The notes under the pieces: model-generated
The model's input: the letters and a program-made list of their open reading frames with translations, nothing else
The model's database searches: none
What the model was told of the DNA's origin: nothing
Shown here: positions 25,617-27,969 of the stretch, one piece after another
How positions within the stretch are numbered: position 1 is the stretch's first letter
Layout of the letters: the number at the start of each line of letters is the position of its first letter
NCBI RefSeq assembly: GCF_013122565.1
Contig: NZ_CP053258.1
Direction: 5' to 3' (one strand)
Length of the DNA stretch: 64,000 nt
DNA from: Escherichia coli
Lineage (GTDB): Bacteria; Pseudomonadota; Gammaproteobacteria; Enterobacterales; Enterobacteriaceae
Translations under genes and position numbers: made by a program

Positions 25617-26630
25617 ATGTTTAACGGTAAAAAGATTTTAATCACTGGTGGTACTGGGTCATTTGGTAATGCAGTGTTACGTCGGTTTCTTGAGACAGAT
25701 ATTCAAGAGGTTATTATTTTCAGTAGAGATGAAAAAAAACAAGATGAGATGAGAACGCTATATCGCAATGATAAAATGAAATTTATTATAGGTGATATTA
25801 GAGATTATACATCTGTTTTAGCTGCAACTAGTGACGTTGACTATATATTCCATGCTGCGGCTTTAAAACAGGTGCCTTCATGTGAATTTTATCCATGGGA
25901 AGCAGTTAAAACGAATATAATTGGTACAGAAAATTTATTAAATGCTGCAAAACAAAATAAAGTTAAAAAAACAATTTGTTTGAGCACTGATAAAGCTGTG
26001 TATCCAATTAACGCAATGGGAATTTCGAAGGCTATGATGGAAAAAGTGATGACAGCAAAGGCTAGGACGTTCAACAATGAAGATTCAGTTGTTTGCGGAA
26101 CTCGTTATGGCAATGTTATGGCATCACGCGGCTCTGTTATCCCTCTGTTCATTCAGCAGATTCAAACAAATCAACCATTAACTATAACAGACCCTGAAAT
26201 GACTAGATTCATGATGACGTTAGATGATGCTGTAGATCTCGTATTATTTGCATTTAATAACGGGCAAAACGGTGACATTTTTGTTCAGAAAGCGCCTGCC
26301 GCGACAATTGCTGTGCTTGCTAAAGCATTAGTTGAATTGATGGGGGTGCCAAACCATCCTATTAAAGTAGTTGGTTCACGTCATGGGGAAAAGATATATG
26401 AAACCTTACTTAGCCGTGAAGAAATGGCAAAAGCGATTGATCATGGAGATTATTATCAGATTCAACCAGATAATCGTGATCTGAATTATGACAAATATTT
26501 AAGCGAAGGGAGTAAAAAAATTGAGCTGTTTGATGATTACAATTCCCATAATACATATAGACTCAATGTTGATGAAATGAAAAAATTATTGTTAAAACTC
26601 AATATCATTCAAAATGTGTTAAATAGTTAA
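25617..26630 (+). CDS. UDP-N-acetylglucosamine 4,6-dehydratase/5-epimerase (FnlA/WbvB/CapE family)
   Basis: 337 aa starting MFNGKKILITGGTGSFGNAVLRRFLETDI with …YIFHAAALKQVPSCEF… and …CLSTDKAVYPINAMGISKAMMEKV…, closely resembling recalled FnlA/Cap5E sequences. Confidence 0.85.
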   Translation: MFNGKKILITGGTGSFGNAVLRRFLETDIQEVIIFSRDEKKQDEMRTLYRNDKMKFIIGDIRDYTSVLAATSDVDYIFHAAALKQVPSCEFYPWEAVKTNIIGTENLLNAAKQNKVKKTICLSTDKAVYPINAMGISKAMMEKVMTAKARTFNNEDSVVCGTRYGNVMASRGSVIPLFIQQIQTNQPLTITDPEMTRFMMTLDDAVDLVLFAFNNGQNGDIFVQKAPAATIAVLAKALVELMGVPNHPIKVVGSRHGEKIYETLLSREEMAKAIDHGDYYQIQPDNRDLNYDKYLSEGSKKIELFDDYNSHNTYRLNVDEMKKLLLKLNIIQNVLNS

Positions 26631-26642
26631 GGATAATTTATA

Positions 26643-27512
26643 ATGCAAAAAATATTGATCTTAGGTGTGAGTGGTATGCTTGGGCATACCCTCTTTCGTT
26701 TTTTATCATCTCAGCAGGATCTTTTAGTAACTGGTACAGTACGCCATATTACGCAAGAAATAAAATTAGTATCATCTAAGAATATAGTCCTGATGAGAGA
26801 TGTCTTTAACAAAGAAAAATTAGAAAACATTATAAATTCGAATGATGTTATTATAAATTGCATTGGCGCAATTAAGCAGAAATATGATAATAAAAATACA
26901 GATTATATTCTGTTAAATTCGTACTTTCCACATCTTCTTAATGAAATTTGTATAGAATCTAATAAAAGGCTAATTCATTTCTCAACAGATTGTATTTTTA
27001 ACGGTGAGAAAGGAAATTATGATGATGGTAGTTTATCAAATGTTATAGATATGTATGGTAAATCTAAATATTTAGGTGAGGTTTATGGTGATAAAACACT
27101 TACTTTAAGGACATCATTAATTGGGCATGAATTAAAATCATCGTATAGTTTGATTGATTGGTTTTTGAACTCAAACTCAACTGTCAATGGTTATACAAAA
27201 GCTATTTTCAGTGGATTGCCAACCATAGAAATTGCGCATTTTTTATATGAGCATGTTTTACAATCCCAGTTGCATGGTATTTATAATTTATCAGCAGCAC
27301 CAATTTCAAAATTCGATTTATTGACTTTAGTCAATGAAGTATACAAACTTAATAAAACCATCGTTCCTAAAAGTGACTTTGTGATTGATCGTTCTCTTGA
27401 CTCTCATAGGTTGCGTTCATTAACTAAGTATACACCTCCTGACTGGAATACTCTTGTTGTAAAGATGTATTTAGATTACTTAAGTTTAGGGGCATTGCTT
27501 AATGAAAGATAA
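26643..27512 (+). CDS. RmlD-like NAD(P)-dependent sugar-nucleotide 4-reductase (WbvR/QnlB-like)
   Basis: 289 aa starting MQKILILGVSGMLGHTLFRFL (Rossmann GxxGxxG) with YGKSK catalytic dyad; length and family fit dTDP-4-dehydrorhamnose reductase-like enzymes that follow FnlA-type dehydratases in L-QuiNAc/L-RhaNAc pathways. Confidence 0.7.
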   Translation: MQKILILGVSGMLGHTLFRFLSSQQDLLVTGTVRHITQEIKLVSSKNIVLMRDVFNKEKLENIINSNDVIINCIGAIKQKYDNKNTDYILLNSYFPHLLNEICIESNKRLIHFSTDCIFNGEKGNYDDGSLSNVIDMYGKSKYLGEVYGDKTLTLRTSLIGHELKSSYSLIDWFLNSNSTVNGYTKAIFSGLPTIEIAHFLYEHVLQSQLHGIYNLSAAPISKFDLLTLVNEVYKLNKTIVPKSDFVIDRSLDSHRLRSLTKYTPPDWNTLVVKMYLDYLSLGALLNER

Positions 27513-27969
27513 CTTATCTTTTTCTAAACTGATTTCTGAAGCTGAGATTAACTCCAGAAATCGTTCTCATCTTAATTTGCATGAATCTTTTTCTGATCCT
27601 ATACAGAAAACTTTGATTTGCTGTTGTTCGAACACGTATATTCCTCCTCACTATCATAAATTTGCCCATCAAAGTGAATTGTTTATTAGATTAAAAGGAT
27701 GTTTTAGTCTATTAATTTTTTCTGTTGATGGAGTGCTTACCCGTCGTATAACTATAGATGAGGAAAATCCTCTTTATGAGATAAAACCAGGTGTTATTCA
27801 TACGGTGGTAGCTTTAGACAGACATAACATTTTACTTGAAATTAAGAGGGGACCGTATGTCGAATCTGAAGCGAAAAATTTTCCTGATTGGGTAACATTA
27901 GAAAATAGCGATAATCAACTTGATTTAGAGCGATTGCGAACATTGAAGGTCGGTGATAAGTTATCATAA
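27502..27969 (+). CDS. WbuC-like cupin-fold protein of unknown function
   Basis: 155 aa; start overlaps the reductase stop; His-rich motif (…YIPPHYHKFAHQSE…) consistent with a cupin metal site; recalled co-occurrence of WbuC-family cupins with fnl-type genes in O-antigen clusters. Confidence 0.5.
   Translation: MKDNLSFSKLISEAEINSRNRSHLNLHESFSDPIQKTLICCCSNTYIPPHYHKFAHQSELFIRLKGCFSLLIFSVDGVLTRRITIDEENPLYEIKPGVIHTVVALDRHNILLEIKRGPYVESEAKNFPDWVTLENSDNQLDLERLRTLKVGDKLS

Follow-up and report, generated by a model that had tools for sequence, protein, structure and literature searches.

A WbuC-family cupin gene in a three-gene sugar module of the Escherichia coli O3 O-antigen cluster

The O-antigen cluster of Escherichia coli O3 holds what is almost certainly a real and, by its looks, expressed gene encoding a cupin-fold protein of the WbuC family, the third in a three-gene module behind an FnlA-like dehydratase/epimerase and a short QnlA/WbvR-like 4-reductase. 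For the window (the whole 64,000-nucleotide stretch of DNA analysed here), the identity of the gene is already known, as RefSeq names wbuC correctly, and nothing about this gene is unexpected. Many pathogens, among them E. coli O26, O25 and O145, Staphylococcus aureus types 5 and 8, Pseudomonas aeruginosa O11 and Rickettsia, build L-FucNAc, L-QuiNAc and L-RhaNAc into their O antigens and capsules, and the enzyme for C3 epimerisation in 6-deoxy-L-HexNAc pathways is debated. Tentatively, we propose that WbuC is a cytoplasmic, metal-dependent helper acting on FnlA's UDP-4-keto-6-deoxy-HexNAc product, in which case it would most probably be an epimerase/isomerase.

The O3 module and its wbuC gene

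The window carries the E. coli O3 O-antigen cluster, whose wzx and wzy genes bear O3-family annotations. The features discussed below are as follows.

25617..26630, + strand: FnlA/WbvB-like UDP-GlcNAc 4,6-dehydratase/5-(3-)epimerase, first gene of the module (Pfam Polysacc_synt_2, 357 bits; TIGR04130 FnlA, 574 bits)
26643..27512, + strand: short RmlD-like / QnlA-WbvR-like C4 reductase, 289 aa, without a cupin domain (RmlD_sub_bind, 57.5 bits)
27488..27492, + strand: Shine-Dalgarno-like AGGGG within the 3' end of the reductase gene, 9 nt 5' of the wbuC ATG (read from the sequence)
27502..27512, + strand: overlap of wbuC start and reductase stop, 11 nt, ATGAAAGATAA (read from the sequence)
27502..27969, + strand: wbuC-type gene for a WbuC-family cupin fold (putative metallo)protein, 155 aa (ORF, TIGR04366, RefSeq, AF2 model)
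27649..27657, + strand: His50-Tyr51-His52 codons, cupin motif 1, predicted metal ligands (conservation in 134 homologs; HxH alignment with OxdC and the FnlB cupin)
27676..27678, + strand: Glu59 codon, for an invariant residue predicted to act as metal ligand or catalytic base (same alignment position as the Glu ligand in OxdC and FnlB)
27799..27801, + strand: His100 codon, cupin motif 2 (PGxxH), invariant (conservation; alignments with OxdC and the FnlB cupin)

The TIGR04130 score of the FnlA-like protein (574 bits) lies under the equivalog cut-off of 730. The reductase, which RefSeq calls a 'dTDP-4-dehydrorhamnose reductase family protein', shares 47-54% identity with FnlA-adjacent reductases in O98 and in metagenome loci. 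The O3 cluster includes neither a WecB-type 2-epimerase nor a WbuB GT4, and it has no aminotransferase. Among E. coli O antigens, L-RhaNAc occurs in O3 only (PMC7685785). Based on their sequences, the O3 genes appear to fit a UDP-L-RhaNAc module, with an FnlA-like protein, a short RmlD-like reductase, no 2-epimerase and L-RhaNAc in the polysaccharide. The predicted product of the three-gene module is UDP-L-RhaNAc, for the rare sugar in the O3 side branch.

The wbuC ORF (27502..27969, + strand) encodes 155 aa from an ATG start. An earlier note had argued for a real gene from an 11-nt overlap with the reductase stop. Indeed, this overlap is present exactly: the reductase TAA lies at 27510-27512, within the shared ATGAAAGATAA, and an identical 11-nt overlap is found in an unrelated metagenome cluster, L017 (4022 vs 4032). 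The arrangement is compatible with translational coupling. The ribosome-binding site of wbuC is weak. A longer alternative start is excluded because an in-frame stop lies just four codons 5' of the ATG, and the ORF list contains no overlapping ORF of at least 80 aa on the opposite strand. A promoter/terminator scan around the gene gave nothing specific. By alignment, RefSeq WP_016242239.1 has the same coordinates; PGAP names it WbuC family cupin fold metalloprotein, and RefSeq annotates its gene in 16 complete E. coli genomes. Compared with another O3 strain, wbuC has three nucleotide differences, all synonymous and all at third positions, and compared with a 53%-identical ortholog, differences number 59/36/86 at codon positions 1/2/3. 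The wbuC substitutions follow a purifying pattern. The gene's reality, as the earlier note had it, is further borne out by the profile match and the many homologs described below.

Family, fold and conserved site

The protein matches the NCBIfam profile TIGR04366 (WbuC family cupin fold metalloprotein) at 132 bits against a cut-off of 42 (E 1.2e-38) and end-to-end, with residues 3-131 on profile positions 3-131 of 132; the suggestion of a WbuC-type cupin, for which the earlier note had proposed a profile search, was therefore correct. Pfam DUF6016 (PF19480) matches residues 8-73 only and stays under its gathering threshold (20 vs 27 bits); homologs carry a precomputed PF19480 match. At E<=1e-3 there are 1023 homologous clusters at 50% identity. 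Sequence searches of the PDB returned no solved structure of the WbuC family, a viral contig scan found no WbuC, and a literature search found no published function for the family.

An AF2 model built from an alignment of 134 sequences (pLDDT 95.3; single-sequence AlphaFold gave only pLDDT 40) is a canonical cupin barrel, in agreement with the cupin fold proposed in the earlier note. The His-rich motif that had been read as a cupin metal site comprises PPH50-Y-H52-KFAH56QSE59 and PGVIH100. Across the 134 family members, H50 and H52 are at least 90% conserved and E59 and H100 are invariant, and these four residues align with the Mn ligands of oxalate decarboxylase (OxdC) and with the HxH..E..H of the FnlB cupin. 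Through this conserved HxH...E...H set, WbuC is predicted to bind metal. The best Foldseek matches of the model are cupin phosphoglucose and phosphomannose isomerases, which are metal-dependent and use enediol chemistry. Overall, the model comes closest to sugar isomerases that depend on a metal and to the cupin domain of CapF, but at the general cupin level only. The isomerases in question (D-lyxose isomerase 7NZO, archaeal cupin PGI 1X82 and PMI 7ZVM) share 15-20% identity with WbuC; their substrates are free sugars or sugar phosphates of central metabolism, and they have no genomic link to O-antigen genes.

Within the family, the O3 protein and O26 WbuC (TIGR04366/DUF6016) share the R-x-R...H, PH-x-H, E, PGxxH and E-x-K-x-GP motifs, and both genes lie in an O-antigen cluster, on the same strand as an FnlA-type module and on its distal side. 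However, O3 WbuC is only 30-35% identical to the O26, O25, O15, O145 and O98 proteins, and it has 155 aa with a full C-terminal tail, whereas those have 132-135 aa. It also directly follows the reductase, whereas O26-type WbuC follows a 2-epimerase and the WbuB GT4.

By the tests applied, the O3 protein did not belong to any of three other cupin types. The C-terminal cupin of CapF/WbjC/FnlB (PDB 2ZKL; PF14667) belongs to the same family of pathways from UDP-GlcNAc to 6-deoxy-L-HexNAc, and its HxH..E..H motifs align with those of WbuC; however, that domain is fused to an SDR whereas WbuC is a separate polypeptide that accompanies FnlB rather than replacing it. Homology to the FnlB cupin is generic, at the cupin-core level (hhalign probability 66%, 18% identity, 68 core columns), and the conserved N-terminal D-x-R-G of FnlB is absent from WbuC, which has its own S-x-R-x-R-x-H..H. 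The FdtA/QdtA dTDP-4-keto-6-deoxyglucose 3,4-ketoisomerases (PDB 2PA7, 4ZU7; PF05523) are likewise small (~140 aa) single-domain cupins, with 4-keto-6-deoxy sugar nucleotide substrates, and they are the best but weak PDB sequence matches of WbuC profiles (E 0.002-0.14, not significant). WbuC has no Pfam PF05523 match, the Glu ligand is missing from FdtA, where Gln takes the place of WbuC E59, and the O3 cluster offers no aminotransferase for a 3-keto product. RmlC (dTDP-4-dehydrorhamnose 3,5-epimerase), with which a comparison had been suggested, offers a functional analogy, as a cupin whose 6-deoxy sugar nucleotide substrate is epimerised at the positions beside its 4-keto group. WbuC does not match the dTDP_sugar_isom profile (PF00908), and RmlC is not its nearest structure.

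Distribution and genomic context

The association of WbuC with fnl genes raised in the earlier note held up in five E. coli serogroups and in metagenomes. In O26, O25, O15, O145 and O98, the gene order is fnlA-reductase-2-epimerase-GT4-wbuC. Within the O3-like subfamily, 32 of the 35 informative metagenome loci have WbuC co-directional with, and directly behind (abutting or overlapping), an fnl-type module, the gene directly before it being a 2-epimerase or WbuB-like GT4. The FnlA-reductase-WbuC trio recurs, syntenic or analogous, in two other cluster types, and in the O3, L012 and L017 clusters WbuC is kept with a coupled start while both the 2-epimerase and WbuB are missing. WbuC is linked to modules with long (FnlB) and short (QnlA) reductases alike, and it co-occurs about equally often with full-length FnlB, which has its own cupin domain. 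The common denominator of WbuC-bearing modules is FnlA plus a 4-reductase, i.e. the 4-keto intermediate.

WbuC is nonetheless a recurrent but dispensable accessory gene. It lies within 10 kb of 6/80 QnlA-type loci and is missing near the other 74, and at least one FnlA-FnlB-FnlC-GT4 module is without it. In the related E. coli strain M23314, wbuC is truncated or split. Solitary members lie between queG/gltX and pgi/ppc, beside an opp permease and fpg, or after plsB, and 657 plasmids carry a homolog adjoining mcr-9 or blaCTX-M, or feoAB in Pantoea; these housekeeping-context and plasmid members have no fnl neighbours. In two samples, a fusion of WbuC to an LbH acetyltransferase has genes for a DegT aminotransferase and a GFO/IDH/MocA oxidoreductase as neighbours; another fusion joins WbuC to a NUDIX domain. 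Thus, of the idea that WbuC is a conserved, uncharacterised partner of the pathway, recurrence stands, as does the lack of any paper found that assigns a function; universality does not, given the 6/80 QnlA-type loci.

Possible roles of WbuC

As a helper of the kind proposed, WbuC would be a single-domain cytoplasmic cupin in which His50, His52, Glu59 and His100 hold a divalent metal. Its substrate would be FnlA's keto-sugar nucleotide, UDP-2-acetamido-2,6-dideoxy-L-hex-4-ulose, with the UDP diphosphate held by the conserved Arg19/Arg21 and the sugar in a pocket lined by His27, Tyr46, Glu113 and Lys115. The most probable activity would be to speed proton exchange beside the 4-keto group, i.e. 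C3 epimerisation from L-arabino to L-lyxo via a metal-stabilised enediolate, which would give the 4-reductase more of the correct isomer. In favour of this proposal are the conserved site, the best Foldseek matches to isomerases with enediol chemistry and the linkage to modules that share the 4-keto intermediate. The LbH and NUDIX fusions, together with the weak FdtA/QdtA matches, hint at a nucleotide keto-sugar substrate. CapF, an SDR with a cupin domain, is credited in the literature with C4 reduction and with C3 epimerisation of the same 4-keto intermediate (PMC3699295).

Several observations count against a helper epimerase. The pathway works without WbuC: for UDP-L-RhaNAc a cupin-free route of two Megavirus proteins is enough, in which the short reductase is credited with the 3-epimerisation (PMC10117803), and UDP-L-QuiNAc is made by WbvB/WbvR/WbvD alone (PMC6765297). 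WbuC stands about equally often alongside FnlB, which bears a cupin of its own, and a C3-epimerase role there would be redundant; the homology between WbuC and the FnlB cupin is, moreover, only generic. The 74/80 QnlA-type loci without WbuC and the family members without fnl neighbours argue in the same direction.

These last observations also suit another possible, if doubtful, explanation, that WbuC is a pathway-independent small metallo-cupin with a common metabolite or stress function, merely travelling at the distal end of fnl modules. Such a protein could sit alone among housekeeping genes, on 657 plasmids beside mcr-9, blaCTX-M or (Pantoea) feoAB, and in just 6/80 QnlA-type loci; moreover, WbuC is always the last gene of its module, and the O26-type E. 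coli copies lack the C-terminal ~25 residues. A mere passenger is harder to reconcile with 32/35 informative O3-like loci in which WbuC is co-directional with the fnl module and abuts or overlaps it, with its retention and coupled start in the rearranged O3, L012 and L017 modules, with intact conserved residues and purifying substitutions, or with fusions to sugar-nucleotide enzymes elsewhere. Rather unlikely, in our view, is a different keto-sugar nucleotide enzyme, either an FdtA/QdtA-like 3,4-ketoisomerase or a damage-control enzyme that removes or re-isomerises by-products of FnlA or the 2-epimerase (4-keto or glycal compounds that are unstable or off-pathway). The weak matches in sequence to FdtA (E 0.002-0.02) and QdtA point this way, as do one family member that scores 28 bits against the cut-off of 23 for FdtA in Pfam and the LbH acetyltransferase fusion, which mimics the WxcM/FdtD architecture; the fusion to NUDIX suggests that nucleotide sugars are hydrolysed or cleaned up, and the optional distribution suits a repair or helper role. 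Yet a ketoisomerase would find no aminotransferase in the O3 cluster, where the sugar is not a 3-amino sugar, E. coli O182 has an FnlA-like gene and aminotransferases without WbuC, and metal-free FdtA has Gln where WbuC has the invariant Glu59.

The 3-His/1-Glu site and weak profile matches to oxalate decarboxylase could also suggest a cupin that depends on oxygen, as a dioxygenase or oxidase akin to cysteine dioxygenase, quercetinase or oxalate oxidase. We consider this highly improbable: the O3 cluster holds neither a redox partner nor a plausible substrate, the presence of homologs in fnl modules of a MAG from Erysipelotrichia may point away from oxygen use, and WbuC is no more similar to dioxygenases than to sugar isomerases. 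Finally, AT-rich DNA (about 32% GC) gives ORFs readily, DUF6016 scores under its gathering threshold (20 vs 27 bits), and the broken M23314 copy could be taken for decay. That the O3 gene is a spurious ORF or a decaying remnant is nevertheless refuted by the end-to-end TIGR04366 match with all family-invariant residues present, the synonymous-only differences from the other O3 strain, the confident fold prediction and the conserved syntenic orthologs.

Returning to the helper proposal in its wider form, it is possible, though far from assured, that WbuC proteins are an unrecognised class of stand-alone metal-dependent nucleotide keto-sugar enzymes, acting as epimerase/isomerase or in damage control and tuning 6-deoxy-L-HexNAc (L-FucNAc, L-QuiNAc, L-RhaNAc) flux. 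If so, the same keto-sugar chemistry would explain the LbH acetyltransferase and NUDIX fusions and might explain the mcr-9/blaCTX-M-mobilised copies. Establishing what WbuC does would resolve part of the debate on C3 epimerisation and provide an annotation for roughly a thousand protein clusters, among them the "orf477/wbuC" found on hundreds of mcr-9 and CTX-M plasmids.

The wbuC gene and its protein family

The wbuC-type gene of the O3 cluster lies downstream of a dehydratase gene and a reductase gene:

25617-26630, FnlA-like UDP-GlcNAc 4,6-dehydratase/epimerase, upstream of wbuC (Polysacc_synt_2, 357 bits)
26643..27512, + strand, upstream reductase ORF, 289 aa, 3' end ...CTT AAT GAA AGA TAA
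27502..27969, + strand, wbuC-type gene, ATG start, 155 aa

The earlier note had placed a real gene here, and its position and length were matched exactly. The wbuC ATG lies inside the reductase ORF, and the claimed 11-nt overlap with the reductase stop is seen as ATGAAAGATAA. There is an AGGGG element 9 nt 5' of the ATG, and an in-frame stop four codons before it makes a longer reading frame impossible; no ORF of at least 80 aa was found on the opposite strand over wbuC. The gene differs from that of strain 2022CK-00450 at three nucleotides, all synonymous and in third codon positions, and from a 53%-identical ortholog by 59/36/86 differences at codon positions 1/2/3. Every residue conserved in the 134-sequence family alignment is present in this copy. 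Together with the family match described below, the complete conserved residues and synonymous-only differences mark the ORF as a functional gene and refute a spurious ORF, which has practically no chance of being correct.

The O3 protein matches NCBIfam TIGR04366 (cupin_WbuC) end-to-end (132 bits, cut-off 42, E 1.2e-38), so the proposed assignment to the WbuC cupins holds; the sole Pfam offer, DUF6016, is under threshold (20 bits, threshold 27). A HMMER scan of 1.84 billion representatives gave 1023 clusters with E<=1e-3, of which 257 reach E<=1e-10. Almost all of them are single-domain proteins of ~160 aa, the nearest with 55% identity. In the family alignment (n=134), H27, E59, G66, H100 and G117 are invariant, and R19, R21, Q35, Y46, P49, H50, H52, F73, G77, E113, K115, P118 and W130 are at least 90% conserved. 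The His-rich motif reads P-P-H50-Y-H52-K-F-A-H56-Q-S-E59, then P-G-V-I-H100.

An AlphaFold model built with the alignment (pLDDT 95.3, pTM 0.89) predicts a nine-strand cupin barrel preceded by an N-terminal helix; H50/H52 close one strand, E59 opens the next, and H100 lies in the motif-2 strand. The top Foldseek matches are archaeal cupin phosphoglucose isomerase and phosphomannose isomerase. PDB sequence profile searches gave weak matches only, including oxalate decarboxylase (E ~1e-3), whose Mn ligands align with H50/H52/E59/H100; the claimed cupin motif is conserved and a metal site is predicted. The nucleotide-sugar ketoisomerases FdtA and QdtA match the WbuC profile weakly (E 0.002-0.14), and when profiles were compared, 30 C-terminal cupin domains of FnlB matched with a probability of 66% over 68 core columns. 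By every criterion that could be tested (HMM score, fold, ligand motif and context), the O3 protein is a WbuC family member; tested likewise for RmlC, FnlB-cupin and FdtA family membership, it belongs to none of the three.

The O3 cluster and related E. coli clusters

The gene order of colanic-acid genes, galF, a low-GC block (27-39%), gnd, ugd, wzz and the his operon identifies an E. coli O-antigen locus. Over 4.3 kb around wbuC, the sequence is 99.5% identical to that of 16 among 5426 complete E. coli genomes, whose wzx and wzy carry the annotation "O3 family". RefSeq holds the exact protein in those genomes under the right family name ("WbuC family cupin fold metalloprotein", WP_016242239.1), so the identification was already known. 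Against the FnlA equivalog TIGR04130, the FnlA-like protein reaches 574 bits, under the cut-off of 730, and its RefSeq name is therefore just 'polysaccharide biosynthesis protein'. The protein groups with FnlA partners of short QnlA-type reductases, not with true FnlA.

The second of the genes upstream of wbuC is a short RmlD-like reductase, and the O3 cluster contains neither a WecB-type 2-epimerase nor a WbuB-type GT4. Among E. coli O antigens, L-RhaNAc occurs in O3 only, and as a side branch only (review, PMC7685785). In the accepted scheme, FnlA/WbvB forms UDP-2-acetamido-2,6-dideoxy-L-lyxo-hex-4-ulose, QnlA/WbvR reduces it to UDP-L-RhaNAc, and C2 epimerisation by QnlB/WbvD leads to L-QuiNAc (PMC5560731, PMC6765297). 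Under this scheme, a module predicted by homology to consist of dehydratase and reductase, and lacking a 2-epimerase, fits UDP-L-RhaNAc.

Elsewhere in the locus, galF is separated from the first O3 glycosyltransferase by an ISAs1-family transposase ORF (349 aa, 18613-19662). The O15 cluster has an ISAs1 copy at the same position, and in strain 2022CK-00450 (L001 4637-6046) RefSeq marks a frameshift and a separate fragment. An AT-rich stretch of ~840 bp between the first GT4 and wzx (21013-21853), where RefSeq skips locus tag RS08930, contains no ORF >48 aa and may be a decayed gene or regulatory spacer.

E. coli O26, O25, O15 and O145 carry fnlA, a long FnlB/WbjC reductase, a 2-epimerase, a WbuB GT4 and wbuC. 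O98 and M23314 share this order, with a short QnlA-type and a split FnlB-type reductase, respectively, and the block fnlA-fnlB-fnlC-wbuB-wbuC has also been noted in Salmonella (PMC6712391). We did not find wbuC in the O182 cluster, which has an FnlA-like gene and aminotransferases. The M23314 cluster (L005 8014-9134, 10264-11745) looks degraded: its reductase is in two pieces, its GT4 is frameshifted, and its wbuC is truncated or split (matches in two frames, at 102 and 43 bits).

The O3 protein is only 30-35% identical to other E. coli WbuC proteins, and its gene is unusual in being coupled directly to the reductase. The WbuB-linked proteins of O26, O25, O15, O145 and O98 (132-135 aa) end directly after the conserved Trp, whereas O3 WbuC, like most family members, has the full C-terminal tail of ~25 residues (…E…L…VGD). 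These features place O3 WbuC in a divergent lineage of the family.

Occurrence with and without fnl modules

Of the closest relatives of O3 WbuC, P0009 (55% identity) comes from an O3-like cluster with full synteny. P0012 (43%) comes from another cluster, yet one with an FnlA-like protein, a 292-aa reductase and WbuC, no 2-epimerase and the same 11-nt reductase-wbuC overlap. P0010 directly follows FnlA-FnlB-FnlC, and P0014 follows a QnlA-type reductase, a 2-epimerase and a GT4. A metagenome scan for WbuC relatives gave 42 loci, seven of them too short to judge. The gene directly 5' on the same strand was a WbuB-like GT4 in 17 and a 2-epimerase in 14, and a reductase only in the O3 cluster itself (1/42); long and short reductases were about equally frequent. 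Three loci with at least 2 kb of upstream sequence had no fnl gene.

For the converse test, the short reductase served to retrieve 80 genomes from many phyla, and WbuC was within 10 kb of it in only six. In this set, QnlA-FnlA-2-epimerase modules of Legionella, Rickettsia and Burkholderiales type had no WbuC within that distance; WbuC was missing from one FnlA-FnlB-FnlC-GT4 module as well. In Kangiella sp. MAG NORP56, FnlA-QnlA-2-epimerase modules on two contigs (L082, L083) have identical HMM scores and reflect either duplication or assembly/binning redundancy. Of the claim that WbuC is a conserved fnl partner, recurrence stands (32 metagenome loci and the E. coli serogroups) and universality does not (6/80): wbuC accompanies FnlA-type pathways repeatedly but is dispensable to them.

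Members of the family also occur outside sugar clusters and in fusion proteins:

L113 7986-8480; L132 6389-6925; L024 6001-6477, solitary WbuC homologs in housekeeping neighbourhoods
L003 4971-5447; L004 3965-4441; L002 7977-8450, plasmid wbuC genes
L105 1428-2384; L106 2582-3538, fusion of WbuC with an LbH (hexapeptide) acetyltransferase, in two samples
L107 66-1049, fusion of WbuC with a NUDIX hydrolase

The solitary homologs lie between queG/gltX and pgi/ppc, beside the opp permease and fpg, or directly after plsB, with no polysaccharide genes within 6-8 kb. In PLSDB, 657 plasmids carry a homolog, mostly adjoining mcr-9 or blaCTX-M; the sites are directly downstream of mcr-9.1, convergent with blaCTX-M-55 (the classical 'orf477') or adjoining feoAB (Pantoea). 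These proteins share about 29-31% identity with the O3 protein over aligned profile columns, and no fnl genes are near the three plasmid genes. The LbH fusion has a GFO/IDH/MocA oxidoreductase and a DegT aminotransferase as its neighbours, which is another keto-sugar nucleotide pathway, and both fusions hint at a nucleotide-sugar substrate.

Possible functions of WbuC

All WbuC-linked modules have FnlA and a 4-reductase, and therefore share the UDP-4-keto-6-deoxy-L-HexNAc intermediate; the 2-epimerase and WbuB transferase are not common to them, because the O3 type has neither. In its predicted metal site WbuC resembles sugar isomerases of the enediol type, a pair of conserved arginines would suit a diphosphate, and the modelled fold is similar to the CapF cupin. 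This last likeness counts because CapF is credited with C3 epimerisation of the same intermediate (PMC3699295). Along with the fusions, these features point to an enzyme handling a keto-sugar nucleotide. The most economical reaction would be C3 epimerisation (L-arabino to L-lyxo) as a flux helper, which we put forward tentatively, as the evidence against it is substantial: cupin-free two- and three-enzyme systems yield UDP-L-RhaNAc and UDP-L-QuiNAc (PMC10117803, PMC6765297), WbuC coexists with FnlB, which carries its own cupin, most QnlA-type loci have no WbuC, and solitary family members exist.

That WbuC is instead a pathway-independent, hitch-hiking cupin is a doubtful reading. A different activity on keto-sugars, for instance ketoisomerase or the clean-up of by-products, is rather unlikely, and an oxygenase very improbable. 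Our first idea, that WbuC stands in for a cupin domain which the short reductase lacks, was tested and does not hold as a general rule.

The literature on WbuC, DUF6016, TIGR04366 and orf477 gave epidemiological mentions only, and we found no biochemical function there. The earlier interpretation of wbuC is supported in a qualified form, as accessory, not universal and not RmlC-like. Altogether, an annotated gene had been identified correctly.
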